In this document: in pieces, positions 3,815 through 55,674 of the stretch
How positions within the stretch are numbered: the first letter of the stretch is position 1
How the letters are laid out: each line of letters begins with the position of its first letter
NCBI GenBank assembly: GCA_964559555.1
Contig: CAZLHM010000001.1
Span: 49,230-113,229, forward strand
DNA length: 64,000 nt
DNA from: an uncultured Candidatus Bathyarchaeia archaeon
GTDB lineage: Archaea; Thermoproteota; Bathyarchaeia; 40CM-2-53-6
Reading direction: 5' to 3'
Program-made: the position numbers and the translations under genes
Notes under the pieces: generated by a model
Seen by the model: the letters and a program-made list of their open reading frames with translations, nothing else
The model's database searches: none
What the model was told of the DNA's origin: nothing

Positions 3815-3833
3815 GACCGCGTAGCCTCCGCGC

Positions 3834-9342: not shown

Positions 9343-10353
9343 TTGACGACGTTCAGTGTTGCCTTCCAAGGGAACAAGCCGATCGCCGATTATGTTAGAT
9401 ACGCCAAGATCATGGAACAACTCGACTTTGACGCATTCCTTGTCTACGACGATGTCATGTACAGACCGTGTTGGCCGATACTCTTCTCGGTAGCTCCGCA
9501 CACGGCTAAACTCCAACTTGGACCTTCGGTTACGCATCCGTACTACACGCACCCGGTCTTCATAGCAGGAAACATAGCATGTCTTGATGAGATCCTGGGC
9601 GGTCGAGCTGTCCTTGGAATAGGTAGAGGTTCCTATTATGAGGAACTCGGAGTCGAGACGACCAAGCCTATTACAGGGGTCAAGGAAGCGATCGAGATCG
9701 TAACTAGATTCATGCGTTCTGACAAGAACCAATATGAGGGCAGAGTGTTCCGAGTCTCCGAAGGAATCGCTTTCAAATACAAACCCATCAGAGCGAAAAT
9801 ACCGATATTCGTAGGGACATGGGGACCGAAGCTCGCCGAGATTGCAGGACAAATGAATGCAATCTCTGAGGTTAGAGTGGATCTGACATGGAATTCCTCC
9901 TATCTCCCAACGATCAGAAAGAGCATTGACCGCGGTGCAGCAGCGGCGGGAAGAGATCCGAACGAAATCGGATTATGCGTTGGACCTCAGACATCCGTGT
10001 CAGCTGACCGCGACCTAGCAAGGAACGCGGTGAGAAGAAGCTTGCCAGACTACCTTTCCTATCCACCCTACAGAGTAATGCTCGAGAAAAGTGGTGTTGA
10101 CCTAGCCGAAGTCGATGCAGTTACGCATGCTGTCTCTGAGAACGACTATCGCACTGCGGAGAATCTCATATCAGATCTCTCGATAGACAAACTCACAGCT
10201 TCGGGAACACCAGATGACATTGTCCAAGGGGCCGAACGCATGATCAAGAGCGGTGTATCCCACATAAGCTTCTGCCATCCACACGGACCTGACGTCGAGG
10301 AAGCCATTCGTCTGATCGGCACTAAGGTCATTCCATACCTAAAGGGACTGTAG
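9343..10353 (+). CDS. LLM-class (luciferase-like) flavin/F420-dependent oxidoreductase
   Basis: TIM-barrel LLM pattern (FDAFLVYDD, VLGIGRGS, IFVGTWGPKL). Apparent TTG start. Confidence 0.8.
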   Translation: MTTFSVAFQGNKPIADYVRYAKIMEQLDFDAFLVYDDVMYRPCWPILFSVAPHTAKLQLGPSVTHPYYTHPVFIAGNIACLDEILGGRAVLGIGRGSYYEELGVETTKPITGVKEAIEIVTRFMRSDKNQYEGRVFRVSEGIAFKYKPIRAKIPIFVGTWGPKLAEIAGQMNAISEVRVDLTWNSSYLPTIRKSIDRGAAAAGRDPNEIGLCVGPQTSVSADRDLARNAVRRSLPDYLSYPPYRVMLEKSGVDLAEVDAVTHAVSENDYRTAENLISDLSIDKLTASGTPDDIVQGAERMIKSGVSHISFCHPHGPDVEEAIRLIGTKVIPYLKGL

Positions 10354-10370
10354 GACGACCTCCTTGGCTG

Positions 10371-11486
10371 ATGGTGAGCCACTTGAATCGTGTCGAGAGA
10401 ATCGCTAGGGAAAACATAAAGAAGATTCACGAGTGGATGGAGAATGACAAGATTGATCTAGTATTTCTTTGTGATCCACCGAACATCAGGTACGCAATAG
10501 GCATAGGTCCATATATGACGCGGACTATGTTTGAGTCTGCGTTTAGCGAATATGTGCTGTTTAGCAAGGATGATGAGCTACCTGCTATCCTAGTCAATTT
10601 CTACCAAGCCTTCTATCGCGAGAGAGTCAGATGGGTATCCCATATCGGCTCTATGGACGAACTCGAATCCTACCTGAGAGGACTCAGCCGCGTCAAACGG
10701 GTCGTCACCTCAACGGAGACTCCGAACTACATCATTGAGAGAATGAAGGGCGTCCTAAGTGACGCGACGATTACTGCTGATGCCTCCGACCTTGAAAAGA
10801 TCCGCTCTATAAAGTCAGATCATGAAATTGCCAACATCAGCGATGCTGCGGAAATAGCAATGGCAATGATGCAGAAAGCTCGAGCGGCATGTAGGGAGGG
10901 CGCAAGAGAATGCGATGTTGCAGCAGAGGCTGAACATGAAATGCGCAAGCTAGGAGCTGACACCTTCGCATTCTCCACGATTGTGAGTTCCGGATTCAAT
11001 CTAGGGGTGATGCAAGAGATCGCCACCGAGAAGCGAATTCAGTCCGGGGAGACCGTGATGGTAGACCTAGGTGCCACTAGGAACTCGTATAATGCAGAAT
11101 TCACTCGAACGTTCGCGATTGGGTCGATTTCGAATGAACTACGTACATTCTATCGTGTAGTTCACGAGGCTTTGCTCTGCTCCATCGACAAAATACAACC
11201 AGGCCAAACATGCCACATTGTCGACAAGACAGCGCGAGACATAGTGAAGAGATCGGGTCACGACTATGCCCATTTCACTGGTCACGGCATCGGGACCTCG
11301 GTTTGGGAGTATCCCACGGTCGCTACCAATTCCGTCGCAACCCTCGAGCCTAACATGGTAATTGCATTGGAGCCCGCCATCTACAAACCCGGTGTGGGAG
11401 GAGTTCGCCTTGAGCACAACTTGGTTGTCACGAAGAATCATCCCAAAATTCTTACTCCTTTTCCCTTCGAGGAGGAACTGCTCTAG
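10371..11486 (+). CDS. M24 family peptidase (Xaa-Pro dipeptidase-like)
   Basis: HFTGHGIGTSVWEYP, NMVIALEPAIYKPGVGGVRLEHNLVVT. A second M24 paralog in the window. Confidence 0.8.
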   Translation: MVSHLNRVERIARENIKKIHEWMENDKIDLVFLCDPPNIRYAIGIGPYMTRTMFESAFSEYVLFSKDDELPAILVNFYQAFYRERVRWVSHIGSMDELESYLRGLSRVKRVVTSTETPNYIIERMKGVLSDATITADASDLEKIRSIKSDHEIANISDAAEIAMAMMQKARAACREGARECDVAAEAEHEMRKLGADTFAFSTIVSSGFNLGVMQEIATEKRIQSGETVMVDLGATRNSYNAEFTRTFAIGSISNELRTFYRVVHEALLCSIDKIQPGQTCHIVDKTARDIVKRSGHDYAHFTGHGIGTSVWEYPTVATNSVATLEPNMVIALEPAIYKPGVGGVRLEHNLVVTKNHPKILTPFPFEEELL

Positions 11487-11510
11487 TAGAACAGATCACT
11501 CGTTTAATCA

Positions 11511-12477
11511 TGTGCACGAGGTGTCTAGATTCGTGGAGAATAATACGATCACTCGTCTCGCTGGCCTTCTCGTAGGACATGCTGAATCCAAGAAGGCATT
11601 GACTGGATGCACTGTTGTAATTTGTCCGGAGGGAGCTATCGTTGGATGTGACATCCGAGGGGGATATCCTGGGACCTTTGACACTCAATCAATCGAAGCG
11701 ACTCGCTCCTATGTCAGGAAGCAAGCAGTCTTCTTGGTGGGAGGTGACGTGTTCGGACTCGTCGCGGCTGATGGAATCCAGAGATGGCTGATCGAAAAGA
11801 AAATCGCTGATGCCAAGAGCCCTTCGAAGCTTCCAGGAGTAGTCGGAGCGAACATCTACGACTTGGACTTTTCCAAGCCGACGAAGGTATCCTACTCCAA
11901 GCTAGGCTACCTTGCTTGTGTCAATGCGTCAAATAGAACCGTCAAAGAAGGTCGGGTCGGAGCAGGAATTAGCGCGACCGTCGGTAAGTTTCTGGGCATA
12001 CAATACTCCTCAAGAGGAGGAATTGGCAGCAGTGCAATCAGTCTTGGAAACGGCCTACAGGTTGGCTCGCTTATTGTGACCAATGCCGAAGGAAACATCA
12101 TCGATCCCAAGACTGGGATTACACTCGCGGGAGCCAGATGGCCCGGCCACGACTTCGTCGAACTTGTCGATGTCTCTGAAGAATACCTCCGTAGCGACCG
12201 TGACGGCGGCTCCACAACAGTCGGCATCGTGGCAACCAATGCGCGATTGAGTCACGAACATACAATAAAAGTCGCTCAGATGGCTTCAGCCGGATTGGCT
12301 CGAACCATCAATCCCGTCCACACTTGCGGTGACGGGGACACCATATTCGGTCTCTCAATGGGAACTTGGATGAGAATCCCTGACTCTAGGAACTTGGTCA
12401 GTTTGATAGGAAGCTTGGCGGCTGAGCAAGTTGCCAAGTCCGTGACAAGGTCTGTCAAGATGTCAAATACTGACTGA
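11511..12477 (+). CDS. DmpA/OAT (peptidase S58 / P1) family aminopeptidase-like protein
   Basis: A Gly/Ser-rich autoproteolytic-family pattern (GVGAGISATVGKF, GSTTVGIVATNARLS). The start is ambiguous: the upstream in-frame part overlaps the preceding gene, so a GTG near 11511 was chosen. Confidence 0.6.
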
Positions 12478-12669
12478 GGAAGCCACGGCGAGCCCGCGCC
12501 ACTGATCTAGTCGATCGTAGCTTATCCAATCAGTCGGAGAGCAGCTAACGTATTCTGAATCCTTCTTCCTTTCAAACTCGATTCCCTCTTTTAGCTGCTG
12601 ACATGAGGGTTAGAGGACCTCCACCGCATATTTCTCGACCACGATTCCCACTTAGTCGGGCATGTCCAT

Positions 12670-13164
12670 TCAAGGATGCGGCTTTCTCGGATGAGAAACC
12701 TCCTCTTTGGACGCGTAGCGTCCCCATGGAAGACCCTTGCCTGCCAAGTCGCCAAAGAATATGTCAGCAGCACTGATCTCCAATGGTACCCTCTGGAGTT
12801 TCCAAACTACTTGGCCGTGAGCTTTAGGCGAGTCACCGATCGCCGGGGCTTCACACGCAACGTGGGCCACATCGGATGTTCCGCCAAGGCCAAGCTCATC
12901 TGCTCCAACTCCGAACCTGCCCATCGCGACCAATATCGGATGGAGCTGACACAAAGAGTATGTGCAGAGAAGTCCGCTCTTGATTGAACTGACTCCGATG
13001 GTCCGTCCGTATTGAATTCCTGTTTCAGTGATCTTTATCGAGTCGTCGTACTCGAAGCGGTCACCCTTCGTCCAGAACGGACAGGCTCCTCGAAGCTCAA
13101 CAACCTCGCCCAGTATCTTGTATTTCTTTCTACTTGCTGCCTTATCCTGCAGATCTTGTGTCAT
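12670..13164 (-). CDS. TIGR04076-like Cys-motif protein, divergent paralog 1
   Basis: Shares GACPFWTKGDRFEYDD, VACEAP and VVWKLQRV with the canonical TIGR04076 member at 13675-13980. Confidence 0.4.
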   Translation of the reverse strand: MTQDLQDKAASRKKYKILGEVVELRGACPFWTKGDRFEYDDSIKITETGIQYGRTIGVSSIKSGLLCTYSLCQLHPILVAMGRFGVGADELGLGGTSDVAHVACEAPAIGDSPKAHGQVVWKLQRVPLEISAADIFFGDLAGKGLPWGRYASKEEVSHPRKPHP

Positions 13165-13625
13165 TTTGCGATCCCCGCGACAGGTACCCTCGATCCTCTA
13201 AATATCACGCGGCCATGTTTCGTGTAGGGCGGACCCGGCGCCGGGCAAGCAAGCCATGCGTCGCCATCCTCGATCATTCGATCAGCCGCAACGTCACTCC
13301 CTCTGAACCAAGCGTACCTTGTTGAGAACGAGCTGACGGCAAGTTTGCAGACGAAGTTGCTCTCTTCTTCATTTATGAGATCGTCATCAAACACTATCCT
13401 GTCGCCTTCACGGTAGATAGGGCATCCACCGGATATCTTCCACACCTCGAAGGTCGTTCTATACACGGGCCTAGTCTCCTTCTTGCCAACTTTCGTTGGC
13501 AGAGGATCATCCACGTGCGAGCTTGCTTTGCTGCAATCAAAAGATATCGGATGTTCTGTTCGCCGTACGCGTTCAGTATTGATGTCAGAGTTTGTTTCAC
13601 TCAATGCAACACAACCCCCAAACAA
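13161..13625 (-). CDS. TIGR04076-like Cys-motif protein, divergent paralog 2
   Basis: GGCPIYREGDRIVFDDD, AWLACPAPGPPY and VIFRGSRV, the same motif order as its neighbours. 4-nt overlap with paralog 1. Confidence 0.4.
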   Translation of the reverse strand: MFGGCVALSETNSDINTERVRRTEHPISFDCSKASSHVDDPLPTKVGKKETRPVYRTTFEVWKISGGCPIYREGDRIVFDDDLINEEESNFVCKLAVSSFSTRYAWFRGSDVAADRMIEDGDAWLACPAPGPPYTKHGRVIFRGSRVPVAGIAK

Positions 13626-13674
13626 TTCTTGATGCGGCCATAGAATTGCGTCTGTTTCAATGAGCCAGTGTGTG

Positions 13675-39499: not shown

Positions 39500-39973
39500 T
39501 TAGAGCATCGCTTCCTCAGCTTCGTGTTCTCTGGCGCGTGACTCAATGTACTCTGCGACTTTCTCCTCAGTGTAGCGCTCCGATTCCTCCTGTTTCTTCA
39601 AGTGCTCCCTGATAGTGGACAGGAAGGCGTCCATATTCACTATCGGCTTCACAACATAGCCGTCTGCGCCCCGATTCACGGCTTGGATAGCGTTCTCCAA
39701 AGACGGATACCCAGTGACGATTATCTTGACAGTCCTCGGTTCCCTTTCTCGCATCGACGTAAGAAGTTCTGTGCCATCCATGTCTGGAAGGCGAATGTCG
39801 ATCAAGGCAAGGTTGTATGATTTGCTGTTGGATCTGTCGATCGCATCTCTTCCGGTTTCTGCCGTGTCTACAATGTACCCTTCTAGTTCAAGGATCTGTT
39901 TGAAGTTCCTTAGAACCGCCTTGTCATCGTCTACCGCCAGAATACGCTTGTTTCCCAAACAGCCTCCTCCCAC
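39500..39973 (-). CDS. Response regulator receiver-domain protein (CheY-like, stand-alone)
   Basis: Receiver-domain signatures ILAVDDD, a phospho-acceptor Asp in LALIDIRLPDMDG, and KIIVTGY. Confidence 0.8.
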   Translation of the reverse strand: MGGGCLGNKRILAVDDDKAVLRNFKQILELEGYIVDTAETGRDAIDRSNSKSYNLALIDIRLPDMDGTELLTSMREREPRTVKIIVTGYPSLENAIQAVNRGADGYVVKPIVNMDAFLSTIREHLKKQEESERYTEEKVAEYIESRAREHEAEEAML

Positions 39974-39974
39974 A

Positions 39975-42900
39975 TTACTTCCTCAAGGGGAGCCTGACCG
40001 TAAAGGTGGAACCTTCCCCGGGTCTGCTTTCGACCGTTATGCTTCCGCCGTGGGCTTCCACGATCCGCTTGCAGACTGGCAATCCTAATCCTTGTCCCTT
40101 GGGTTTGGTTGTAAAGAATGGGCTGAACATCTTATTGAGGTTCTCTTGTGGAATGCCGAGGCCGGTGTCTCGGAAGCTCACAAGCGCGTCTTCTCCTGTC
40201 CTCGAGGCGGCAATTCTGAGATCCCCTCCGGCCGGCATCGCCTGGATCGCGTTCGCGATCAGGTTTGTGAAGACTCGTTTCATCAGAGCAGAATCCACAG
40301 TCACCATCGGTAACCCTTCCTCAATGAAGATCGATAGCTTGACAGTCTCTGGAATGGTTACAGTCATACGTGCATCGTCCATTAGCCTCTGCATAGTGAT
40401 CTCGACCGGCCTAGGCTCTAATGGTGAGGCGTAGTCTTGCAGATCCGAGACGATCTTGTCCATGTAACGGATCTGCTCGTCAATTGTCTTGAACATCTCA
40501 ACAACACCACTCTCCTCAGCAAGCTTTGCATAAGTCGCAGGTAGGGCCTCGAACTTCTTCTGGGTCAAGTAGATCGTGCTGGTTATGGCCTGTAGGGGAT
40601 TGCGCAAGTCGTGGCCGACCATTGCCGTCGTTTCGCCGATGGCGGCCAGTCGCTCTGCCTGCTTCAGCTTCGATGTCCTCTCCTCGACTATTCGTTCAAG
40701 GTCTGAGCTGTGACGCTGTGCTTGGTCCAGAAGGCGTGCGTTTCCGACGGCGATAGCCGCGTGGTTCGCGAAGAGCTTCAGCAGTTCCATATCTCCCGGC
40801 GTGAAGTGTCTGATCTTTTCGTCCTCCAAGACATGTATGACCCCTACCAGTCGGTTCTGCCAGGTCATGGGCACGCTGAGGACCGCGGTGAAGGGTTTGT
40901 CCTCTTCATACGCAGCGGCTCGACCCTGCCAAACGCGATAGTCGTCGATGATGAGTGATTGTCCTGTCATCGCTACTGTGCCGGCTGCGCCCTCGCCGTA
41001 CTTGAGCACGAGTCCGGTGTAGTCACGTCCGGTATTGTAACTCACGACGCAACGGAGTTCCTTGCGTTCAGGATCGGACAGGTACATTCCTCCGCCATGA
41101 GCATGTAGCAACCTAGCCGCCCGCTCCACAATCGTGCGTAGAAGTTCCGGCAGGTCAGGCCTACCCGTCACGTCAAGAACAGTCTCCTGCAATGCAGTTA
41201 GCTGCTCCGCCCGATCGCGAAGGTTCTGCACCTGTCGCAGCCTAACCATCCCCGAGGAGACGTGCATCGCGAGTGTTTCAGTTAGCATCTGATCTGCCTT
41301 GGTGAAGGCACCAAGCTTCGTGCCTTCGACATTTAGGACGGAGACTACGGAGCCCTCTACAATCACAGGAACAGCCAGCTCAGACAGCATCTGTAGTGGT
41401 TCGCCGGTTGATGTCTTGATTCCAACGTCCACGTACGTTGGTTCAGTTCTCGTATCAGCGATCATGACCGTTTTTCCGGTTCTTACTACCTTGACCACTA
41501 CGCCGGGGCCGTCCAATGGTAGCTCCTTAACCGATCCTGGCATCCCTCTATATCCTCTGAGGCGAGCCAAACCATTCTCAACCACAACGAACCCGGCATA
41601 TTGGAAACCAAGCGTGAATTCCATCGCGTCGAGAGTGCTATTCACTACCTCATCCAAGTTGTCGGCTTTGCCAAGTTGCATCGAGTGTTTATGAAGAGCA
41701 TCCAGCTTCTCCTCCATCCTCTTGCGTTCTGTGATGTCTCTTACCACGCTGACCCATCCCACTCGCTCTCCCTTTTCGCTCAGTTCCGCGACAAAATGCT
41801 CTGATGGAAACACTGAACCATCCTTACGCCTCATATGGAACTCGGCCAGATGGAAGGGCAAACGACCCTGTGCTACGGCGGGATAGAGTTGACGTTGAAA
41901 CTCTCCAAGAGCATCCTTGCTTACATGGAGAAAATCAGTGCTCTTGCCTAGCATCTCCGCCTTCTCATAGCCGAAGACGCTGCAGGCCGCCGTGTTACAT
42001 TCTAATATCTTGGGCGCGCTGGGAGGAGTAGTCGCGTCTAGAAGGAAGATGGCGTCAGACATGCTGTCGTAGGTCTTCTGAAGCACTTCGGTTTGGCGAC
42101 GAATTGCCTCTTCCATCTTCTTACGATCCGTGATGTCTCTTAGTGCCCCTTCATAGTAGAGGACTCTGCCCTTCTGGTCGCGCACAACGTGAGTATTGGC
42201 TAGGACCACCAAGTGCTGACCATCCTTCCGTCTCAAGTTGATTTCGACATTGCGCAGTTCGCCGGCTAGCTCCAGTCTCTTCAGCAGAATGTCCCTGTCT
42301 TTGTCTTTCACATACAAATCACGAGCCACATCAACAGCTAGAAGTTCGGCTTCCGACCCGTAGCCCAGCATTCGCACAAGCTCCGGGTTCGCTACGAGCA
42401 TCTTCCCGTCTGGGGTTGTTCGGTAGATTCCAGAAGGTATCTCCTCGAAGAGTGTGCGATACTTCAGCTCGGATGCTCGAAGAGCCTCCTCCATTTGCCT
42501 TCGTTCGGTTATGTCCGTTCCTGAGCTGAGCGTGCACACGATACGGCCCTCGGCGTCCCTAAGGATCGTGTTCTGCCAAGCGATTAGGAGCTCGGTCCCG
42601 TCTCGTGTCAGAACAGGATTCTCATAGTACTCGACCAGCTCAAGTTTGCCTGCCATCAGCTTCCTGAAGACCGACCTGACTTCCTCACGCAGTCTGGCGG
42701 GCAGAAATGTGTCAAACCAATTCTTCCCAAGTGCTTCTTCCCGAGCGTATCCCAGAAACTCGCATGCCTTCCGGTTGAGTAGAGTGACTCGCTCGTCCTT
42801 GTCGATGGCTACCATTATCACGCCGGCAACATCTAGGTACGCAGTTGCTTTGTCTCGCTCCTGTGTGAGCTCGTCCTGTATTCGCTTGTAGTCAGTAACG

Positions 42901-43364
42901 TCCAAAATGATTGCTTGGAATCCCACAGTTTCGCCTTTGATCCTGAGTCTCGTGGGCCTGGAGACTAGGTGAAGAACTTGACCATCCTTGCGCATCGCTC
43001 GTAACTCTATGTTACCGCCTATTGATCTCGAAACTCCCTCTTGGAATAGGGTAGTGATCCTCTCTCTGTCTTCCGGATGCAGCAAGTCAACGAATGGTCT
43101 GCCAACCAGCTCTCGGACGGAATAGCCTACCAGGTCAGCCAGTGCGCTGTTGGCGTACGTAATCCGGCCCGTCAGATCACTCATGGCAATCGGAACGACG
43201 GCTTTCTTCACTAGACTCTGGAACCTTCCCTCGCTCTCTCGGAAAGCCCGCCTAGTTTGTTTCCTCTTTCTGAGCCTGCTGATACGACGCGCTACTGTCT
43301 TCCTTGTCACCTTCATGTGACCTCTAGTCCTAGGCATGCTACTCTTCCTCACTCCTTTTCTCAA
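39975..43364 (-). CDS. Multi-domain sensor histidine kinase (multiple PAS/PAC + GAF domains, HisKA, HATPase_c)
   Basis: 1129 aa with repeated PAS-like blocks (...ITERKRMEE..., ...DITDRKKMEE..., ...DITERRQMEE...), GAF-like segments, an H-box (AMVGHDLRNPL) and an ATP-lid (GLGLPVCKRIVEAHGG). Confidence 0.85.
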   Translation of the reverse strand: MRKGVRKSSMPRTRGHMKVTRKTVARRISRLRKRKQTRRAFRESEGRFQSLVKKAVVPIAMSDLTGRITYANSALADLVGYSVRELVGRPFVDLLHPEDRERITTLFQEGVSRSIGGNIELRAMRKDGQVLHLVSRPTRLRIKGETVGFQAIILDVTDYKRIQDELTQERDKATAYLDVAGVIMVAIDKDERVTLLNRKACEFLGYAREEALGKNWFDTFLPARLREEVRSVFRKLMAGKLELVEYYENPVLTRDGTELLIAWQNTILRDAEGRIVCTLSSGTDITERRQMEEALRASELKYRTLFEEIPSGIYRTTPDGKMLVANPELVRMLGYGSEAELLAVDVARDLYVKDKDRDILLKRLELAGELRNVEINLRRKDGQHLVVLANTHVVRDQKGRVLYYEGALRDITDRKKMEEAIRRQTEVLQKTYDSMSDAIFLLDATTPPSAPKILECNTAACSVFGYEKAEMLGKSTDFLHVSKDALGEFQRQLYPAVAQGRLPFHLAEFHMRRKDGSVFPSEHFVAELSEKGERVGWVSVVRDITERKRMEEKLDALHKHSMQLGKADNLDEVVNSTLDAMEFTLGFQYAGFVVVENGLARLRGYRGMPGSVKELPLDGPGVVVKVVRTGKTVMIADTRTEPTYVDVGIKTSTGEPLQMLSELAVPVIVEGSVVSVLNVEGTKLGAFTKADQMLTETLAMHVSSGMVRLRQVQNLRDRAEQLTALQETVLDVTGRPDLPELLRTIVERAARLLHAHGGGMYLSDPERKELRCVVSYNTGRDYTGLVLKYGEGAAGTVAMTGQSLIIDDYRVWQGRAAAYEEDKPFTAVLSVPMTWQNRLVGVIHVLEDEKIRHFTPGDMELLKLFANHAAIAVGNARLLDQAQRHSSDLERIVEERTSKLKQAERLAAIGETTAMVGHDLRNPLQAITSTIYLTQKKFEALPATYAKLAEESGVVEMFKTIDEQIRYMDKIVSDLQDYASPLEPRPVEITMQRLMDDARMTVTIPETVKLSIFIEEGLPMVTVDSALMKRVFTNLIANAIQAMPAGGDLRIAASRTGEDALVSFRDTGLGIPQENLNKMFSPFFTTKPKGQGLGLPVCKRIVEAHGGSITVESRPGEGSTFTVRLPLRK

Positions 43365-43408
43365 TCCCTTTTCTCACCAGATCTCAGATCTCACCCGTCA
43401 TCAGAGTC

Positions 43409-43783
43409 CTACCTCACGACCGTCTTCACCTGCTCCACGTACTCGACAAGCGTCCATTCTACTCTTGGGGTGAAGTTCAAGCCGAGCCTCTGGTAGAGAT
43501 TCTTGGCGATGAGCCTCTCAACCGTCGCAGCACCAGTACCCAATATATCCGTGAGCGCAGTGTGAAAAGCGTCAAGCTTCTCAGGAATACTCTCACGCTT
43601 GAGCCCATACATCTTCTCAATTTGATCATAGATTGTCTGCCTCACAGTTGCGCCGAGAACATTCAGTCCATGATCCACGGCATCAAGCAGCACCTTCGCG
43701 AAATCCACAGACTGATTCGAGGAATTCACCCGCCACTGGGAGGCTGGGGACCGTCGAGGCTTCCGAGGACTCGGCGTTGTCAC
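43409..43783 (-). CDS. Hypothetical protein (possible regulatory partner of the HK/RR pair)
   Basis: 124 aa in a clean frame immediately upstream of the HK on the same strand. No confident family assignment. Confidence 0.3.
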   Translation of the reverse strand: MTTPSPRKPRRSPASQWRVNSSNQSVDFAKVLLDAVDHGLNVLGATVRQTIYDQIEKMYGLKRESIPEKLDAFHTALTDILGTGAATVERLIAKNLYQRLGLNFTPRVEWTLVEYVEQVKTVVR

Positions 43784-44016
43784 TATTCATAGGCGGGGAA
43801 AACGGGATAAACGTTCTGGGACCACAGTTCACATTGCGCATCGGAGTCTCCCATGAGCCTCGCATGGAGAATGAACTCAAAACAAACTATGTCAATTCAC
43901 GCAAGCGATTCATTGTCTCTCGATTTGACAGCGAGCGAAAGAACCAGTCAACGAGGTCTCTGGGAGTGACAGTCAAGTACCGCACATCGAGGCTATTGCC
44001 TGAAGTTAAGGAGACG

Positions 44017-44481
44017 ATGAGAAGAGGCTACAGGATCGGTGACAGGATACCAATGGCCAAGTACGCTATTGTGAGCCTCGCTACCGGGGTCCTCTTCGGC
44101 ATCATGGATGGGCTGATTAACGCCAACCCGATTGCGGAGAGTGTGTATGCGTTCTACGGCCCCATCAGAAGGACATCTGTAAACGTTCTTGCCGGCGTTC
44201 TGATCGACCTCTACTATGGATTCGTACTCGCTGGAACGTTCATCCTACTCTTTAGGAGCCTGCCCGGCCGTAGGGGCTGGGTTAAGGGTGTCAGTTTCGC
44301 GCTTCTCGTTTGGTTCTTCCGAGTTGTGATGCATACAGCATCGGAGTGGATGATACTCGAAGTGCCAGTTGTGGCATCACTCTATTCACTTGTCACAGGG
44401 CTTGCAGAGATGCTTGTCCTTGGTAGCCTGTATGGGCTCACACTGAAACCTCTGATCCAAAGTGCTTCTGCCAACGGCTGA
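44017..44481 (+). CDS. Hypothetical integral membrane protein
   Basis: About four hydrophobic helices (AIVSLATGVLFGIM, VLAGVLIDLYYGFVLAGTFILLF, VSFALLVWFF, VVASLYSLVTGLAEMLVLGSLYGL). The ORF-track start at 43633 is rejected because it overlaps the opposite-strand gene. Confidence 0.4.
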   Translation: MRRGYRIGDRIPMAKYAIVSLATGVLFGIMDGLINANPIAESVYAFYGPIRRTSVNVLAGVLIDLYYGFVLAGTFILLFRSLPGRRGWVKGVSFALLVWFFRVVMHTASEWMILEVPVVASLYSLVTGLAEMLVLGSLYGLTLKPLIQSASANG

Positions 44482-44491: not shown

Positions 44492-44857
44492 TCATTGAAT
44501 GCGCTGTCCGAGAATCATAGTTGGCGTCGTCACTAGACATCGCGCGAACTCCTTGAAGAAGTGCTCTAGGCCTGACTTGGTTGCTTTCCCGTGTACCATT
44601 TCGTCTTCAAGCTCCCAATATAGAACATACGTGGACTCCCTGGGCCGCCGAGTAAGCTTGATCGGGGGAAGGCCCTTCTTGGCGGAACTGAAATCTCGAT
44701 GTCTATGGGTTCTCTTCATGTAGCGTACATCTCTAACGCCCCGAAAACTTCGATGATGCTCGACGACGCGGCTAACCAGTTGCTCAAACTCCGTAACCCT
44801 CTCAGGCTTGACCTTGTAGATGCAAACCTCCACAAACCTCTCGGATCTATGACCCAT
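44492..44857 (-). CDS. Hypothetical protein, possibly ABM (antibiotic-biosynthesis monooxygenase)-like fold
   Basis: 121 aa. N-terminal FVEVCIYKVKPERVTEFEQL resembles the Dabb/ABM beta-alpha-beta start. Weak. Confidence 0.25.
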   Translation of the reverse strand: MGHRSERFVEVCIYKVKPERVTEFEQLVSRVVEHHRSFRGVRDVRYMKRTHRHRDFSSAKKGLPPIKLTRRPRESTYVLYWELEDEMVHGKATKSGLEHFFKEFARCLVTTPTMILGQRIQ

Positions 44858-45146
44858 TGACCAATCCCTCCTTCTCCATTCTTACTCCTTCCGTCATACG
44901 TGTATCAGTATGGCATGCACGTTGACCCTTTGGGCAGCTCCACAAGAACTCCACTCTTGAACTCCGTGCCTGAGGAAAAGACACCACATTTGCCGAAGAC
45001 GCACATCCGTGAAGAGACCAGGCGGAGCAGGCGATTGGAGACGTGTGGTAGGGAGAACTTGAGGATGCCACGCGCCATAGATAACGGATAAGAGGTAATA
45101 TCAGAGAGAGTGCGTCGTCAGATCAGTTTGATTGACCACGCCATGA

Positions 45147-45920
45147 GGCCCATCCGTAGACGAAGATGGGAGGGAGGAGTCGCTGCCTACATTCAGTTTC
45201 ACATTTGATGACGGAAACTCCTCGCAGCTCACCGACTACTATCCAGTCCTGAGGAGACATCGGTTTCCTGCAACCTTCTATTTGATAGCAAGCGAAATAG
45301 GAATTCGTGGCAGACTGTCGGTTGACAATGTGCATGAGCTCCTCGCTGAGGGAAACGAGATCGGCAGTCACGGTCTAACCCACAGATCATTAGCGGAACT
45401 CGGGCCGAGTCAACTACGTAGTGAAGTTGAACGAAGCCGGCAGATTCTCACAGATTTCGATGTGAGAAGCTTCGCATATCCGTATGGGCATTATGACGAA
45501 AAGATCGCGACAGAAGTAGCCCGCTACTACGATTCGGCACGCGCCTACAGCCGCGTACCAGTGCCTAACGTGGCAGAACAGGTGGACAAGTATGCGCTTC
45601 AAGCTTTCTCAATTGAAGGCAGGTTCGAGTCGCGAATAGATCCGAGAATGCCTGACTTTATCATGCGTAGAGAGGGCATCATGGAATCCAAGGATTGGTA
45701 TATTCTGATCCTGCACGGCCGAGCTTCGGCCAGGATCCCGACTCGTCCACGTGACCTCACAATAGAACAGATGCGCGGTTACATGAACTATTTGCGAGCC
45801 ACGCTGAAGTCCAATCGAGTTCAGTTCTTGCGGAATCTCGAAGCATTCTGTGAACATCTCGCTCAAGAGAAGATCACCGTCACTACAGTATCTGATGGAG
45901 TGGCGCGGCTATCGCCCTGA
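45147..45920 (+). CDS. Polysaccharide deacetylase (NodB/CE4 family); catalytic N-terminal motif lies upstream of the first canonical start
   Basis: In-frame LPTFSFTFDDG (the catalytic Asp-Asp motif) at 45183-45215 and the downstream His-rich metal site (GSHGLTH). The first ATG/GTG/TTG in this frame is 45282, and only a CTG at 45183 precedes the motif. An ATG at 45143 is in the -1 frame, next to a purine-rich slippery-looking gggagggaggag. Confidence 0.55.
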   Translation, partial: GPSVDEDGREESLPTFSFTFDDGNSSQLTDYYPVLRRHRFPATFYLIASEIGIRGRLSVDNVHELLAEGNEIGSHGLTHRSLAELGPSQLRSEVERSRQILTDFDVRSFAYPYGHYDEKIATEVARYYDSARAYSRVPVPNVAEQVDKYALQAFSIEGRFESRIDPRMPDFIMRREGIMESKDWYILILHGRASARIPTRPRDLTIEQMRGYMNYLRATLKSNRVQFLRNLEAFCEHLAQEKITVTTVSDGVARLSP

Positions 45921-46107
45921 CGGGGCGTTCGAGGACACAGAGCATGATGCTGAAGTTGCTGTCGGAAAAATGGGTAGCAAGTTCCTAGTGGCAGTTTTCT
46001 TGAGAGTCGGCAATAGCATCGAAGTTATGACAATCTACCATACTCGGGAACTCGAGAAGCTGGTCTCATCGAAGCTGCAAAGAGGTGCTTGGAGGAGAGT
46101 CAAATGA
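45895..46107 (+). CDS. DUF4258-like small protein (putative toxin of a DUF4258/DUF2283 pair)
   Basis: ~70 aa ending ...KFLVAVFLRVGNSIEVMTIYHTRE, overlapping the start of the DUF2283 gene by 19 nt. Confidence 0.4.
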   Translation: MEWRGYRPDGAFEDTEHDAEVAVGKMGSKFLVAVFLRVGNSIEVMTIYHTRELEKLVSSKLQRGAWRRVK

Positions 46108-46301
46108 AGGTCCACTACGACAAGGAGTATGACATCCTATACTTGACGTTCAAGGACGGACCGAGTCATGACGTCATCGAATCGGCTCCTAACGTTGTGC
46201 TGGAGCTTGATGAGAAGAAAGAGATAACGGGCTTGGAGAGCTGGGACGCCAAGAAGACAGGACTTGTCGAGCAGGTCGCCAAGACCGCCGCGAGTTCATA
46301 G
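46089..46301 (+). CDS. DUF2283-family small protein (putative antitoxin)
   Basis: 70 aa with MKVHYDKEYDILYLTFKDGPSHDVIESAPNVVLELDEKKEITGLE, the characteristic DUF2283 pattern (YD.E.D.LYI...). Confidence 0.5.
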   Translation: MEESQMKVHYDKEYDILYLTFKDGPSHDVIESAPNVVLELDEKKEITGLESWDAKKTGLVEQVAKTAASS

Positions 46302-46510
46302 CTTGATCTTGTGACTGAAATCCCTAGCCTCAGTTATGCCATCGGACATACTGAGTCCTTCAGTGTTATCATGGGGTTTGGACCCATGGATCACCAGTAT
46401 GAATTCTGTCGAGCTTGCCCTTCTTGATGGGGATTGTCACGGAACTCAGCACTCGTAACACGAAATCGCGTTGCTCAGACCTCTGACTTTGAAGAAACTA
46501 GCTGCCACGC

Positions 46511-46535
46511 AAGAGTGGTGAATGTGCGGGAGGGG
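46511..46535. repeat. Distal copy (attL-like) of a direct repeat matching the 3' end + trailer of tRNA-Leu(CAG)
   Basis: aagagtggtgaATgtgcgggagggg here versus aagagtggtga--gtgcgggagggg at 48555-48577, i.e. 23 of 23 aligned bases with one 2-nt indel. The second copy overlaps the last 11 nt of the tRNA gene. Confidence 0.5.
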
Positions 46536-47010
46536 CGTCTCCAATCTCAGATTGGATGCGCACTTACTCCTTCGCCCTTGGATTCTGAGACGATTAAGGA
46601 CAATCCGGCGCAACATTTCAGTGTTGTCGTCCCGAGTTTCATGAGTTGTATGATATCGTGTTGCCGTGACCTGTGGCGGACGACTGAGGCTTCGAGCGTT
46701 TTCCTCTAGGAGATTATTCCGAAGCCATAGAACCTTGTCACAAGCCTTGAGGTTGTGTCTTCAATTGAACCCGTTTCGACAATGAGCCGAGGCTGGTGAT
46801 CTAGAGTCTGAACTGAGCACGATTCGTCAGACTAGCCGAGAATCCGAAGAACTTCTCCATGCTCACTCTGGAACCGGATAGAACTCTTAGTGGGCGACAG
46901 CGAGGAACAATACCTTCGAGCTATCACCTGCTGGGGAGGACGACAACTCACTGTCCCAGCCCCCACACCTTATCAGCTACTCAAGGTTAGGTTGTTGGCG
47001 TGGCAATTGC

Positions 47011-47018
47011 TTATAGGA
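47011..47018 (+). promoter_or_regulatory. Candidate TATA box (TTATAGGA) for the DarT-macro gene
   Basis: Centred ~30 nt upstream of the ATG at 47045, consistent with a leaderless or short-leader archaeal transcript. This also argues against the GTG-47000 start. Confidence 0.3.
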
Positions 47019-47044
47019 ATGTAGAACCCGACTTCGGTGGTGAC

Positions 47045-48223
47045 ATGTCGCTTCAGTCGTCCCAACGTCGTTCAACAGTTAGAGAACTGTACTACATCAC
47101 TCACATCAAGAACTTGCCCTCGATACTCCGCAGAGGTATCTTATGCCACCGGAAGATGGTTGCAGAAGGAATCCCCTTCGAACCGATTTATGACGAAGAG
47201 ATCGTCTCAAATCGAAAGAACATCGCAGCGCCAAATGGCGAAGACTTGTGGAGCTTCGCGAACTTCTATTTTCAGCCTCGTAACCCGATGCTTTATCGTG
47301 TTCTGCTTCATAGACCTCGAGAGGATATCGCCATCCTAGGCGTTAGACGAGACATTCTCGGTCTCTCCAAAGTCTACGTCACAGACGGGAACGCTGCGAG
47401 CTCGAATTCAAAGATACTGCCTGTAAACCCCAAGGCCATTGAGCAAATCGCAGCCCAGACGGATGAGGTCTGGTGGAACTATGTGGATGGCAAGAGAAGA
47501 ATCATGGCAGAGTGCTTGGTTGCGGATGAGGTGCCTCCCGAACATCTCCAAGCTGTGTATGTCCCAAATCATCAAGGAGCGGAGAGAGCGAGAACCTTGG
47601 TTGGCGGGCCTATCATACCCGTCATACCACAACCAGAATGGTTCTTCCTTCCATCTAAGGAGATTCGGCTCACTCCGACGCTCTCCGTAAGGGAGGGCGA
47701 CATGTTCTTCTCTGGTGCGCAAACACTCACGATAAGTGTCAATTGCGTTGGGAAGATGGGCAAAGGCCTTGCATCGAGAGCAAAATACCTGTTCCCTGAT
47801 GTGTACGTATATTATGATGACCTTTGTCGAAGAAGGGCCCTGAAGTTGGGCAAACCGTACCTCTACAGACGGGATATCTCACTGGATCTCCAGCTCGCAG
47901 ACGAGCCCACAAGGTTGCCTGATGCCAATGCTGGAACATGGTTTCTGCTCTTTCCTACCAAGAATCACTGGAGAGACAGAGCTGACATACACGGAATCGA
48001 AAAGGGATTAGGATTGACCGCAAGAGACTACAGGGATATGGGGATCAAGTCACTGGCAGTTCCGGCACTAGGATGCGGACTCGGCGCACTTGATTGGAAG
48101 GATGTGGGCCCGATTCTCTGCAAGTATTTGTCCCGCTTAGAAATCCCGACGTGGATATATCTGCCTGCGGAGAGACGAATATCTGAGGAGTTCCTCACTC
48201 CCGAGTACCTTCTCCGACGATGA
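47045..48223 (+). CDS. Fusion protein: DarT-like ssDNA thymidine ADP-ribosyltransferase domain (DUF4433) + C-terminal TARG1/DarG-like macro domain
   Basis: N-terminal ELYYITHIKNLPSILRRGIL, FYFQPRNPMLYRV, DGNAASSNS and the catalytic Glu in RIMAECLVADEVPPEHLQAVYV (codon 47510-47512) match DarT/DUF4433. The C-terminus has ISVNCVGKMGKGLASRAKYLFPDV ... FPTKNHWRDRADIHGIEKGLGLTARDYRDMGIKSLAVPALGCGLGALDW, a macro-domain pattern of the TARG1/DarG type. An alternative GTG start at 47000 adds 15 aa. Confidence 0.8.
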   Translation: MSLQSSQRRSTVRELYYITHIKNLPSILRRGILCHRKMVAEGIPFEPIYDEEIVSNRKNIAAPNGEDLWSFANFYFQPRNPMLYRVLLHRPREDIAILGVRRDILGLSKVYVTDGNAASSNSKILPVNPKAIEQIAAQTDEVWWNYVDGKRRIMAECLVADEVPPEHLQAVYVPNHQGAERARTLVGGPIIPVIPQPEWFFLPSKEIRLTPTLSVREGDMFFSGAQTLTISVNCVGKMGKGLASRAKYLFPDVYVYYDDLCRRRALKLGKPYLYRRDISLDLQLADEPTRLPDANAGTWFLLFPTKNHWRDRADIHGIEKGLGLTARDYRDMGIKSLAVPALGCGLGALDWKDVGPILCKYLSRLEIPTWIYLPAERRISEEFLTPEYLLRR

Positions 48224-48554
48224 CGACAATAGACGTTTCCGGCCACAACAGCTAGTGTTGGGCGAGGCAGACGAGGTGCAGGGGAAAGAACTCTACGTAC
48301 AATTGGGCCGTTGCAATGCGACGACGATCAGAGGAAGTCTCAATTGGCGCAATTTCGTTTCTTGCATCTATTGACTGTCTCAGGGTGTCCGTCCAATTCT
48401 CCTGCAAGGAATCTCTAGAGTTGCAGAGAGTTTCAAGCCAATTGATCTCGGACACCTTGTGAGCATGTGCCAGCTGCGACGAATCGACATTTGGCAAGTG
48501 TGGATCTGTGACATGCATGTCATGGATTGCCCGGCGTCTAACCCAGTTACGACC

Positions 48555-48577
48555 AAGAGTGGTGAGTGCGGGAGGGG
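48555..48577. repeat. tRNA-proximal copy (attR-like) of the direct repeat
   Basis: aagagtggtgagtgcgggagggg. Positions 48567-48577 are the 3' acceptor strand and discriminator of the tRNA, and 48555-48566 is the 3' trailer. Confidence 0.5.
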
Positions 48578-48694
48578 GGATTCGAACCCCCGAAGGCCTA
48601 CGCCATAGGCTCCTGAAGCTTGGGTAGCGTTTGTCGCTTCTACCCCTTAGACCTGGTTCCCGCCAGCTGATGAGCTGGGCTCGGGTACCCCCGC
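48567..48694 (-). tRNA. tRNA-Leu(CAG), class II, 128-nt gene containing two predicted non-canonical BHB introns (mature ~85 nt)
   Basis: Minus-strand reading gives acceptor GCGGGGG/CTCCCGC with U8 A9, T-arm GGGGG-TTCGAAT-CCCCC, discriminator A and no encoded CCA. Predicted intron 1 (+48657-48679) removes a bulge-helix-loop to give D-arm CCCGAGCCAGGTCTAAGGGG, near-identical to crenarchaeal tRNA-Leu. Predicted intron 2 (+48620-48639, position 29/30) is flanked by a 4-bp helix GGGT/ACCC and 3-nt bulges, giving anticodon arm TAGGC-TTCAGGA-GCCTA with anticodon CAG at +48613-48615. Long variable arm GCCTATGGCGTAGGC. Confidence 0.7.
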
Positions 48695-48818
48695 TGATTT
48701 CGGCTAGTTCGAGCACACCTAGTTAATCCTTACGCGAACTTGACAACTCGATTCCAGTCAATCATCAGAACGCCTATCAGATTGGCTTAGGATTAGCGCC
48801 CCTCGCGGAGATGTCCCG

Positions 48819-53238: not shown

Positions 53239-55674
53239 ATGACAAGTGTGGAACTCACTCCCAAGGATCTGAGGGTACACTGTGAGCCGATGAAATGCCA
53301 TACCAGCGGCGAACTTGCGCCTTTGGACGGCATCATTGGCCAAGACCGCGCCCTTCGCGCGCTGCAATTCGGATTGGGAATTGGGGAGAAGGGATTCAAC
53401 GTATACGCCGCGGGTCCGCCAGGCACAGGCAAGACCACGGCCGTAAGGAACTTCCTAGAGGCCCTTGCGAAGAGCCTACCGACTCCGCCGGATTGGTGCT
53501 ATGTCAACAACTTCCGGAACCCATACGAACCGTTATGCTTGAGACTTCCAACCGGACGCGCTGAAGTTCTCCAGAAAGACATGAAGAACTTCATCGAAGA
53601 GATCAAACGGGCTGTTCCGAGAGCTCTCCAAAGCGAAGAGTTCCAGTCCAAGAGGGACCAGTTGATCAAGGCTGCGGAACAGCGGAGAAACGAGATCCTA
53701 ACCAGCCTCGGCGAAGAAGCAGAAAGGTCAGGTTTCACGATCCAGGTCACACCGCTAGGGATAGCATTGATCCCTGTTTTTGATGGGAAACCCATCAGCG
53801 AAGAAGAGCTTGCTAGATTGCCTGATGAGGTAAGAGAGCAACTCGACAACAAAAGAAAAACGCTCGAAAGCAAATTTGAGGAGGGAACGAAACGGATCGC
53901 CGGGCTCGACAGAGAAACAAGACAGGCAGTGAGGAAACTCACCAATGATGCCGTCGAGTATGCTATCGGCTTCCTATTGGAGAGTATATTGAAGACCTAC
54001 GCAGACCTCCCCGAAGTCGTGGCATACCTCAAAGAGGCAAGGAGCGATATCCTCGAAAACTTCGAGCTTTTTGCAGGTAGGCAACAGCCGGAGATCGCGC
54101 AAAGTCAGCTGCTGACACCTTGGATGCGGGATCTGCCCTTCAGAAGATACGAAGTCAACGTCATCGTTGACAACTCTGAACTGAAGGGCGCGCCAGTCAT
54201 CTTCGACGAGAACCCGACATATCAGAACCTATTCGGAAGGATCGAAAAGGAAGCACAGTTTGGAAGCTTCACTACCGACTTCACACTGATAAAAGCCGGT
54301 TCGGTGCACAGAGCCAACGGAGGATACCTCGTCCTTCCAGTCGAAGATCTTCTCGCGAACCTGTTCTCATATGATGGTTTGAAGAGAGCTCTGAGGAACA
54401 ACCGTATTGTCATAGAAGAACCAGGCGAACGGCTTGGTTTCATTTCTACGAAGACCCTGACCCCTCAACCGATTCCTCTCAACGTGAAGGTCATTCTCGT
54501 AGGAAATCCCATTCTATACCAAGCGCTCTACGCATACGACCCTCAGTTTCAGGAACTCTTCAAGGTGAAGGCCGACTTCGACACTACCATAGAAAGAAAC
54601 GAGGAGAATCTCGAACGGTACGCTTCCTTCGTATGCACACTCTGCGGAAGAGAAGGACTCAGACATCTCGAATCTTCAGCGATAGCCAAGGTTGTGGAAT
54701 ATGGCTCCAGACTGGCTGCAGATCAACGAAAGCTTTCAACCAAATTCGCGGAGGTTGCCGATCTCATAAGAGAAGCCAACTACTACGCTTCACAAGATCG
54801 TGCTGAGTTCGTCACTGCCGCACACATCAATAAGGCCTTGGAAGAGAAAGTCTACCGTTCGAACCTTATCCAGCAGAAGATCGTCGAGATGACAAACCGT
54901 GGTCTCATACTGATAGACACGTCAGGATCCAAGATCGGTCAGGTAAACGGTCTCTCTGTCATAGGCTTGGGTGACTTCGCTTTTGGCAGACCGAGCAGAG
55001 TAACAGCGAGCATAGGTCTAGGAAGAGAAGGCGTAGTTGATATCGAACGTGAGGCGAAGATGGGTGGCCCCATACACACAAAGGGTGTCCTGATACTCGG
55101 AGGATATCTAGCCAACAAGTACGCGCAAGAGAAGCCTCTCAGCCTCTCCACTAGGCTAGTCTTTGAACAGAGCTACGAAGGAGTAGAAGGCGACAGCGCG
55201 TCCACTACGGAACTGTACGCTATCCTGTCGGCTCTAGCCGATCTTCCCGTCAAACAGAACATAGCGGTCACAGGTTCTGTGAACCAAAGAGGAGAAGTCC
55301 AAGCCATCGGCGGCGTCAACGAAAAGATAGAGGGCTTCTACGAGCTCTGCAAAGCAAGGGGCCTGAAGGGTGACGAGGGCGTGATGATTCCGAAGAGCAA
55401 CGCACGGGATTTGATGCTCAAGGATGAAGTCGTCGAGGCCGTGAAGAAGGGACTCTTTCACATATACGCTGTAGGCACTATCGACGAAGGCATAGAGCTG
55501 CTAACTGGAGTCAAAGCCGGCACAAGGAGAGAAGGTGGAACCTTCGAACGCAACACAGTGAATCACAAGGTTGACCAACGCCTGAAGAAGATGGCGGAAT
55601 CCCTGGTCAAGTTCGGAGAAGCACCTAGGCGTGAAAAGCCCTCTCGTGGACGAAAGAAGAACGAAGAAACATAG
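53239..55674 (+). CDS. Lon-related AAA+ ATP-dependent protease (COG1067-type, soluble)
   Basis: 811 aa with Walker A GPPGTGKTT, an AAA+ core, and a C-terminal S16 Lon protease domain (GDSASTTELYAILSAL...AVTGSVNQRGEVQAIGGVNEKIEG, a Ser-Lys dyad context). Confidence 0.75.
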   Translation: MTSVELTPKDLRVHCEPMKCHTSGELAPLDGIIGQDRALRALQFGLGIGEKGFNVYAAGPPGTGKTTAVRNFLEALAKSLPTPPDWCYVNNFRNPYEPLCLRLPTGRAEVLQKDMKNFIEEIKRAVPRALQSEEFQSKRDQLIKAAEQRRNEILTSLGEEAERSGFTIQVTPLGIALIPVFDGKPISEEELARLPDEVREQLDNKRKTLESKFEEGTKRIAGLDRETRQAVRKLTNDAVEYAIGFLLESILKTYADLPEVVAYLKEARSDILENFELFAGRQQPEIAQSQLLTPWMRDLPFRRYEVNVIVDNSELKGAPVIFDENPTYQNLFGRIEKEAQFGSFTTDFTLIKAGSVHRANGGYLVLPVEDLLANLFSYDGLKRALRNNRIVIEEPGERLGFISTKTLTPQPIPLNVKVILVGNPILYQALYAYDPQFQELFKVKADFDTTIERNEENLERYASFVCTLCGREGLRHLESSAIAKVVEYGSRLAADQRKLSTKFAEVADLIREANYYASQDRAEFVTAAHINKALEEKVYRSNLIQQKIVEMTNRGLILIDTSGSKIGQVNGLSVIGLGDFAFGRPSRVTASIGLGREGVVDIEREAKMGGPIHTKGVLILGGYLANKYAQEKPLSLSTRLVFEQSYEGVEGDSASTTELYAILSALADLPVKQNIAVTGSVNQRGEVQAIGGVNEKIEGFYELCKARGLKGDEGVMIPKSNARDLMLKDEVVEAVKKGLFHIYAVGTIDEGIELLTGVKAGTRREGGTFERNTVNHKVDQRLKKMAESLVKFGEAPRREKPSRGRKKNEET

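Follow-up and report, generated by a model that had tools for sequence, protein, structure and literature searches.

The stretch of archaeal DNA analysed here (the window; 64,000 nucleotides of contig CAZLHM010000001.1, positions 49,230 to 113,229, from an uncultured Candidatus Bathyarchaeia archaeon) contains an islet of about 2 kb, at positions 46536-48565, that lies between a minus-strand tRNA-Leu(CAG) gene (48567-48694) and a gene for a DUF2283 protein outside the islet (46104-46301, plus strand; PF10049, E 5e-13), and that is flanked at both ends by direct repeats of the tRNA 3′ end. They enclose a single credible open reading frame (ORF), the DarT-macro gene, which encodes a fused DarT/DarG protein. 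The islet is best read, with a probability of roughly 0.78, as a non-autonomous and partly eroded site-specific integrated element at the tRNA-Leu(CAG) gene, resembling the so-called cis-mobilizable elements (CIMEs). The window is identical to contigs of JGI sample 3300022551 and of several ENA assemblies (source metagenomes JGI 3300022551; ENA ERZ27245483, ERZ781360/1), and the nearest genomes are metagenome-assembled genomes of Bathyarchaeia. All of the loci with which it was compared (about 50-60, numbered with the prefix L) were collected through the LarA gene that neighbours the tRNA.

A tRNA-Leu(CAG) gene with two insertions

The tRNA gene, a class II gene of 128 nt, was recognized from a manually drawn cloverleaf, from its conserved exons, and from ARAGORN calls made after removal of inserted segments. 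Read on the minus strand it consists of a 7-bp acceptor stem, a canonical T arm of the form GGGGG-TTCGAAT-CCCCC, a class II variable arm and the anticodon loop TTCAGGA. Two insertions interrupt it: a hairpin in the D region (48663-48678) and a segment of 33 nt (48619-48651) that splits the anticodon stem around position 30/31. Both inserted segments vary among relatives with compensatory changes (the D hairpin pairs as CCAGC/GCTGG or, in some, as CCAAC/GTTGG), and when 48619-48651 and 10-13 nt of the D hairpin are removed in silico, ARAGORN calls tRNA-Leu(CAG) in nearly every variant. It is because of these two insertions that standard tRNA finders miss the gene; no tRNA is reported anywhere in the 64 kb by ARAGORN, whether at default settings or with an anticodon-loop intron allowed, or by Rfam, whether at the gathering threshold or at E ≤ 10. 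The exons are 100% identical in about 45 relatives, where they adjoin the same LarA gene, and once the insertions are taken out the Leu(CAG) cloverleaf is complete. The gene serves as attB, the chromosomal attachment site, and is intact after integration. A 154-aa ORF that crosses it (48252-48716, minus strand) is spurious, its conservation in relatives being confined to the tRNA itself.

The direct repeat

Positions 48554-48577 consist of two adjoining exact 12-mers, CAAGAGTGGTGA followed by GTGCGGGAGGGG, and both recur beyond the far end of the islet in the same order, CAAGAGTGGTGA at 46510-46521 and GTGCGGGAGGGG at 46524-46535, with the dinucleotide AT in between. The whole repeat corresponds to tRNA positions 63-73 plus 13 nt of trailer. 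An initial annotation of the locus had described 23 nt at 48555-48577 that recur at 46511-46535 with a 2-nt indel, had assigned them to 11 nt of the tRNA end plus trailer, and had held the match to be too long for chance in 64 kb; this description stands, with the repeat slightly longer at 24 nt and the assignment borne out by the tRNA map of 48567-48694. Each 12-mer occurs exactly twice in the 64 kb when one mismatch is tolerated (0.26-0.40 occurrences in shuffles), while the joined 24-mer has no further match in the window at up to three mismatches and is contained in 0 of 100 shuffles, with 0 expected. The repeat is real, and it is not a dispersed repeat family inside the window, the finding that the initial annotation had named as telling against integration. 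The notion of chance similarity or of an assembly artefact can claim nothing beyond the imperfection of the repeat, and its probability is vanishingly small: in addition to the shuffles, homologous junctions occur in other genomes, and the arrangement is present in the independent JGI and ENA assemblies and is therefore not an artefact of assembly.

The two 12-mers do not have the same standing. The duplicate left by recombination is the 12-nt core GTGCGGGAGGGG only, with a proximal copy at 48566-48577 (the complement of tRNA positions 63-73 plus 1 nt) that marks the junction at the tRNA, and a distal copy at 46524-46535 that marks the junction far from it. The other 12 nt (AAGAGTGGTGA) are a trailer-like motif, reflecting a likeness of the attP and attB trailers. 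The sequence at 46510-46523 (CAAGAGTGGTGAAT) is the old tRNA trailer, orthologous to TAAGAGTGCTGAAT of locus L051 and resembling the native trailer of L005, which reads CCACTCTTG in tRNA orientation; the window trailer (…CCACTCTTG… in that orientation) is similar to the native trailers of L005 and L009. Since L051 also has the AT, the 2-nt ‘indel’ is ancestral and not a sign of a decayed duplicate. A third, degraded copy of the tRNA end at 45032-45080, which would bound an older islet with the DUF2283 gene and a deacetylase gene, was considered and set aside, as the local alignment is not significant (76 of 1000 shuffles, 55 of 591 genomic windows).

Gene content of the islet

The DarT-macro gene (47045-48223, plus strand) probably starts at the ATG at 47045, the longest form of the ORF beginning with a GTG at 47000. 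A DarT ADP-ribosyltransferase domain (PF14487, E 5e-42; PADLOC DarT, 3e-36) is followed in one protein by a DarG-type macro domain (Macro PF01661; PADLOC DarG, 9e-40), and the protein aligns over its full length with PDB 7OMU, a solved fusion of 406 aa (E 4e-130, about 58% identical). It is predicted to be a DNA ADP-ribosyltransferase toxin that carries its own reversing macro domain, a known defence-type module; nothing appears new in the protein itself, its architecture having already been solved. There are 2411 homologues, of which the best 120 are about 390-410 aa long, all with the DarT domain and mostly with the macro domain, and the few named ones among them are bacterial. The closest homologue, in L061 (81% identity), shares sequence with the window only from 47035 on, that is, the coding part, between unrelated flanks; others adjoin type I restriction-modification genes, a transposase or toxin-antitoxin (TA)-like genes. 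The TATA-like promoter with which the gene had been credited can be read from the sequence as a box, TTATAGGA, at 47011-47018 on the plus strand, about 30 nt upstream of the ATG at 47045; a promoter role is conjectural, and the box would fit a leaderless transcript.

The islet encodes no integrase. The initial annotation had regarded the DarT-macro gene as the sole ORF between the repeats and had found no integrase, and the ORF, Pfam and tblastn searches agree with both statements. Six-frame translations of the non-coding arms (46629-47044 and 48224-48539) gave nothing relevant against Pfam, and the remnants that the annotation had thought a tblastn search might reveal did not appear, full-length integrases of L057 and L020 giving nothing below E 0.8 in the whole window. 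Nor did composition mark the islet off from its flanks: its GC profile, GC content at third codon positions (GC3), codon usage (rank 40 of 45 by distance) and tetranucleotide distance are not atypical, and the DarT-macro gene is either ameliorated or derived from a related archaeon.

In a different account of the same ends the islet would be the remnant of a ‘suicidal’ integration of the Sulfolobus spindle-shaped virus (SSV) type, in which the integrase gene contains attP and is split into int(N) and int(C) parts, which would now lie on either side of the islet as decayed pseudogenes. Such integration is common in archaea (PMC7253208, PMC8371274), and ORFs do cross both copies of the repeat (48252-48716 and 46446-46616, both on the minus strand). 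Neither of them, however, has a Pfam match, all that the 154-aa ORF has in common with relatives is the tRNA itself, both run out of frame across the core on either side of the 2-nt indel, as read from the sequence, and the arms of about 0.4 and 0.3 kb are too short for an integrase. The split-integrase account was rejected on the missing family match and the broken frame, and is very improbable.

The tRNA end as an integration hotspot

The 3′ end of tRNA-Leu(CAG) is an integration hotspot in about 50 related loci. The order tRNA-LarA-Nramp-MgtE is conserved; at 48566, where the 3′ end of the tRNA lies, DNA homology breaks off with each of the relatives. A tyrosine recombinase (PF00589, E 3e-18, with a typical C-terminal LLGH…Y motif) directly adjoins the tRNA in relatives. 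An intact form of about 290 aa is found in L057 and L020, and truncated forms in at least nine loci (L008, L021, L022, L024, L036, L040, L042, L056 and L058). These integrase-bearing elements, here called type A, have in common a 25-nt core that includes the T arm. Second, partial copies of the tRNA 3′ end are found 1-6 kb downstream in L007/L039, L019, L021, L022, L033 and L056.

The tRNA end shows further variety in relatives. Some displaced copies are longer (40-110 nt) and look like tRNA 3′ halves: L056 4148-4260, in which the anticodon loop and the variable arm are present together with an extra hairpin of 24 nt; L007/L039 8787-8850; L033 5615-5680; and L051 2141-2200. A hairpin, GGGGAGAAA…GTCTCC, is common to the copies of L007, L033 and L051. 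These longer copies suggest further element types with a longer att identity. In L022 (7490-9703, minus strand), as also in L021, the tRNA-adjoining integrase is truncated after about 170 aa and continues in frame into glycosyl-hydrolase-10-like sequence, making a 737-aa ORF, a decayed integrase fused to other coding sequence. Neighbours of the tRNA end elsewhere include a DUF4062-domain protein (L005 7779-9053, minus strand) and a GHKL-type ATPase with an unassigned partner (L051 7217-9657, plus strand), none of which has a PADLOC hit. The site may tend to collect defence-like genes.

A conserved left-end module with changing cargo

The first 95 nt or so of the islet (46536-46628, plus strand) form a module that resembles an attP arm and is conserved among the inserts that bear it. 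From the distal core through the first 58 nt of the islet (46524-46593) the window is 91-93% identical to L022 631-700 and L019 2426-2495, and over 46511-46591 it is 88% identical to L034, although the LarA proteins of L022, L019 and L034 are only about 70% identical to that of the window. Inside the module, with the core left aside, identity to L022 643-700, L019 and L034 is 91-93%. Conservation continues for about 95 nt past the core, to about 46628, beyond which all copies diverge. An nhmmer profile finds the module only in the window, L022/L021, L019, L034, L033 and L066, and partially in L032; a search for more copies by way of called ORFs gave nothing in frame 1 and one more, L066, in frame 2. 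In every copy the core abuts the module on the left and differing cargo follows on the right: the DarT-macro gene in the window, a P-type ATPase and a cation diffusion facilitator (CDF) transporter in L022, a Na/H exchanger in L019, a MarR-type region in L066, and about 350 nt with no gene in L034. The islet is assigned to a second, integrase-less element type.

The module contains two hairpins, the first at 46523-46576, in which the core pairs with CTCCTTCGCC, and the second at 46585-46621. A diverged copy in L033 carries two compensatory changes in the consensus fold, an imperfect hairpin of about 20 bp. Folding of this kind, together with 91-93% conservation where proteins are about 70% identical, would also be expected if module and core were no att arm but an element with a non-coding function linked to the tRNA locus, for instance the gene of a small RNA or a hairpin acting as regulator or terminator. 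The direct repeat would then exist because that element contains a stretch like the tRNA end, and the DarT-macro gene would have arrived by an unrelated route. Against this, no Rfam family matches even at E 10, the fold z-scores are weak, the covariation is thin, with five to six sequences, and in the two pairs of empty and occupied loci described below the module belongs to the segment by which the loci differ, and in each case it occupies the end of that segment next to the duplicated core. We consider such an origin distinctly unlikely.

At the opposite ends, by the second copy of the core, the window, L022 and L019 share the motif (R)AGRAGTGGTGA, which in several relatives is part of a conserved stretch of 60-85 nt abutting the core (the P-prime arm). 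The right end of the islet (48540-48565, plus strand) ends in CCAAGAGTGGTGA and has weak, partial similarity to this arm (a 22-nt blastn match, nhmmer E 0.009, and the junction alignment); it appears eroded. That the P-prime arm is strictly element-borne was not upheld, as L048 and L034 show that it may be a pre-existing trailer, but in L022 the stretch travels with the insert.

Empty and occupied sites in related populations

Two pairs of loci show the insertions directly. L034 matches L048 on both sides of its tRNA end (3347-6503 against 1-3166 at 97%, and 6951-13665 against 3155-9842 at 94%), and differs from it by 447 extra bp at that end, made up of the module and about 350 nt, with the 12-nt core counted in both alignments. 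This 447-bp insert is the smallest member of the family; it (6504-6950) contains no convincing gene, at most a possible hydrophobic peptide of about 40 aa on the minus strand. In the second pair, a segment of 4.18 kb is present in L022 and absent from L056, between flanks that are 83-93% identical, and sits at a displaced copy of the tRNA end. In both pairs the segment that bears the module is a discrete insertion whose limits coincide exactly with the 12-nt core. On its tRNA side a third locus, L058, shares 98.9% identity with L034, and it has a type-A integrase element in the same position; thus empty (L048), mini-element (L034) and integrase-element (L058) states are found at one tRNA in related populations. 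Empty sites exist for these sister inserts; the one that the initial annotation had suggested looking for, with tRNA-Leu directly followed by the DUF2283 gene, was not found for the exact islet of the window.

What the locus would have looked like before integration can be approached through L051, of which positions 2947-3325 are 82% identical to window 46156-46535. The block covers the 3′ part of the DUF2283 gene, the spacer, the trailer motif with the extra AT, and the core, and the similarity goes no further than the last base of the core. Past it L051 has a T-arm remnant, a different insert of 6.4 kb (a GHKL ATPase, a protein like radical S-adenosylmethionine (SAM) enzymes, and a ribbon-helix-helix (RHH) protein), and then its own tRNA; the DUF2283 gene of L051 is a 5′-truncated fragment. 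The simplest history would be an ancestral adjacency of tRNA, trailer and DUF2283 gene, into which different elements integrated independently.

Copies whose cargo is wholly different while their ends are at least 90% identical could also arise if islands were replaced by homologous recombination, with the tRNA and the module or old trailer as anchors, so that cargo was swapped in from other Bathyarchaeia with neither an integrase nor a circle. The native-like composition of the islet would agree with such exchange, as would L066, which is 98% identical to L034 through the first module hairpin and then differs. The anchors, however, would offer very little homology (12 nt at the tRNA side of the insert and about 100 nt in the module), integrases occupy the same site in relatives, and both pairs of empty and occupied loci show a clean insertion with an exactly duplicated 12-nt core, the signature of conservative site-specific recombination. 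Replacement is an unlikely source of the islet.

Transposition was likewise set aside. The ends of the islet (CGTCTCCAATC… and …AAGAGTGGTGA) do not repeat each other in inverted orientation, no inverted pair reaches across them, and the duplicated 12-nt core is a specific tRNA sequence that is reused at each insertion, so that a transposon, an insertion sequence (IS) or a miniature inverted-repeat transposable element (MITE) was rejected.

A model for the integration of the islet

Site-specific integration could have proceeded as follows. A circular DNA would have carried an attP, reading …AGTGGTGA-GTGCGGGAGGGG-CGTCTCCAATC…, in which the 12-nt core GTGCGGGAGGGG joined the module, as a hairpin-forming arm of about 95 nt, to a second arm resembling a trailer. 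Recombination between this site and the same 12 nt in the chromosome, where they lie at the 3′ end of tRNA-Leu(CAG), would have regenerated the tRNA at one junction and moved the old trailer and the DUF2283 flank 2 kb away, behind the second copy of the core. Because the element is without a recombinase, the integrase would have had to come in trans, presumably as a tyrosine-type integrase of another element. The model predicts an empty-site junction of the form …CTAGCTGCCACGCAAGAGTGGTGAATGTGCGGGAGGGGGGATTCGAACC…, in which tRNA-Leu would be followed directly by the ATTCACCACTCTTG trailer and the DUF2283 gene, and a circle or tandem junction of the form …ACGACCAAGAGTGGTGAGTGCGGGAGGGGCGTCTCCAATCTCAG…. 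Since its second arm is largely eroded, the islet is probably fixed, and the mobility of the window’s own copy is doubtful. The initial annotation had proposed integration at a tRNA attB, with which the integrase-bearing elements at the same tRNA, the core-exact sister inserts and the flank of L051 all agree, and had spoken of a minimal or eroded integrated element or of a cassette mobilised in trans; a minimal or eroded element that was probably moved in trans is supported as well.

Several observations weigh against integration of this kind. No empty site was found for the exact islet, all five near-identical assemblies being occupied, and the nearest sampled relatives have just 65-73% LarA identity to the window. 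The integrase that is found at this tRNA belongs to another element type, with a 25-nt core and different arms, and the module was not found together with an integrase in about 60 loci and IMG/VR. The right arm of the islet matches that of relatives over only about 25 nt, the module, folded as a single sequence, does only modestly better than shuffles (z -2.0 as DNA, -1.5 as RNA), and the composition and codon usage of the islet bear no sign of foreign origin. A viral origin was set aside too, the module pattern and the integrase of relatives both being absent from IMG/VR.

Comparison with known elements

Integration at tRNA genes, the build-up of arrays and the capture of genes are an established pattern in archaea (PMC8371274, PMC6563490), described as ‘gene capture’ (She et al. 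2001/2004, as cited in PMC8371274) and known from the integrated mobile genetic elements (iMGEs) of thaumarchaea (PMC6563490). The islet shares with such elements its position in the 3′ part of a tRNA that is regenerated, its direct repeats, decay that leaves captured genes behind, and arrays at one site, and tRNA-targeted integration of this kind is in itself an ordinary, known event. It departs from the classic captured elements in three ways: those keep a whole or partitioned integrase gene whereas the islet has none, its identity segment is short, at 12 nt, and a conserved hairpin arm of about 95 nt is common to its relatives with unrelated cargo. What is modestly new is that archaea have such a family, whose members lack an integrase, share a hairpin arm and carry interchanged cargo.

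In CIMEs the genes for integration and transfer have been lost and attL and attR retained (PMC6323972). The islet conforms to this description, with no integration or transfer genes, the core at both ends, a left arm that is 91-93% conserved and a right arm that is conserved in part. As in the CIMEs of the ICE and IME families (integrative elements that are conjugative and mobilizable, respectively) of Firmicutes, att sites at a tRNA-type target flank a small cargo, the site is also used by integrase-bearing elements, and tandem accretion is seen in relatives. Unlike those CIMEs, the islet has an archaeal host (Bathyarchaeia), one of its arms is eroded, and no cognate autonomous element with the same arms was found. 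Its gene has the order of the fused DarTG of PDB 7OMU, DarT and then a DarG-type macro domain (DarT alone is represented by 7OMV and the DarG macro domain by 5M31/5M3I), and differs from 7OMU-type DarTG in its archaeal host.

The family also invites comparison with the gene cassettes of integrons (attC hairpin, attI, IntI), in that single-gene cargo, promoter-poor or self-promoted, with one conserved end forming an imperfect hairpin, appears to be stacked at one acceptor. The islet is not an integron cassette: it holds no integrase, let alone an integron integrase or an attI/Pc platform, a tRNA end acts as its acceptor, and nowhere does the window contain a homologue of the integrase that is linked to the tRNA in relatives. 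The likeness is one of resemblance only. It can nevertheless be asked whether the 12-nt core and the 95-nt module with its two hairpins, a unit of about 107 nt, serve as recombination site in an archaeal system of cassette capture not described before. In such a system a trans-acting recombinase would load, stack and swap small integrase-less units at tRNA-Leu(CAG). These units would carry one, two or no genes (a defence gene here, ion transporters and the empty 447-bp unit elsewhere). The proposal is speculative and probably wrong as it stands; were it true, the system would be a functional analogue of integron cassettes or CIMEs that evolved independently in Bathyarchaeia.

The surrounding variable region

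On the DUF2283 side, the TA pair of DUF4258 and DUF2283 proteins that had been annotated next to the islet is upheld for its DUF2283 member. Its supposed DUF4258 partner, a 70-aa ORF (45895-46107, plus strand) that overlaps the start of the DUF2283 gene, has no family match in Pfam or PADLOC even at E 1. Between the tRNA and a conserved block of ATP-binding cassette (ABC) transporter genes (window 32.5-39.6 kb) there are 9 kb in the window and 1.5-6 kb in L007, L033, L044 and L046. In L046 a gap of only 93 nt separates the tRNA from the ortholog of window gene 44492-44857 which, like the flank of L051, is indirect evidence for an empty site of the islet. As these distances differ between relatives, the DNA downstream of the tRNA is a variable region, and it is the whole stretch of 39.5-48.6 kb that is variable, not the 2-kb islet alone. 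Window 39500-44481 holds a response regulator, a multi-PAS sensor of 1129 aa and two small ORFs that have no counterpart at this place in relatives sharing the ABC-transporter flank; a homologue of the fifth gene of the block, a DUF6789-like gene (43777-44481), adjoins the tRNA in L044. On the other side of the tRNA, a Lon-like protease/ATPase gene (53239-55674, plus strand; LonC_helical, AAA_32, LonB lid, Lon_C) stands between the MgtE and Meth_synt_2 genes and looks like a second single-gene insertion, since the two neighbours are about 150-210 nt apart in relatives (for example L007, L005 and L006).

Implications

The tRNA-Leu(CAG) gene illustrates that archaeal tRNA genes with multiple insertions can be invisible to routine annotation, and the islands linked to tRNAs in such genomes have therefore probably been reported too rarely. 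As the empty, mini-element and integrase-element states coexist in related populations, recent turnover of the site is suggested, and the locus is a naturally occurring system in which the archaeal integrase at work, and what it requires of its att sites, might be found. The conserved module is a convenient marker with which to locate more captured cargo in the genomes of Bathyarchaeia. If the islet is the integrated element that it appears to be, it shows that uncultivated Bathyarchaeia have gained a bacterial-type defence or toxin gene through site-specific capture at a tRNA, by an element that keeps no recombinase of its own.

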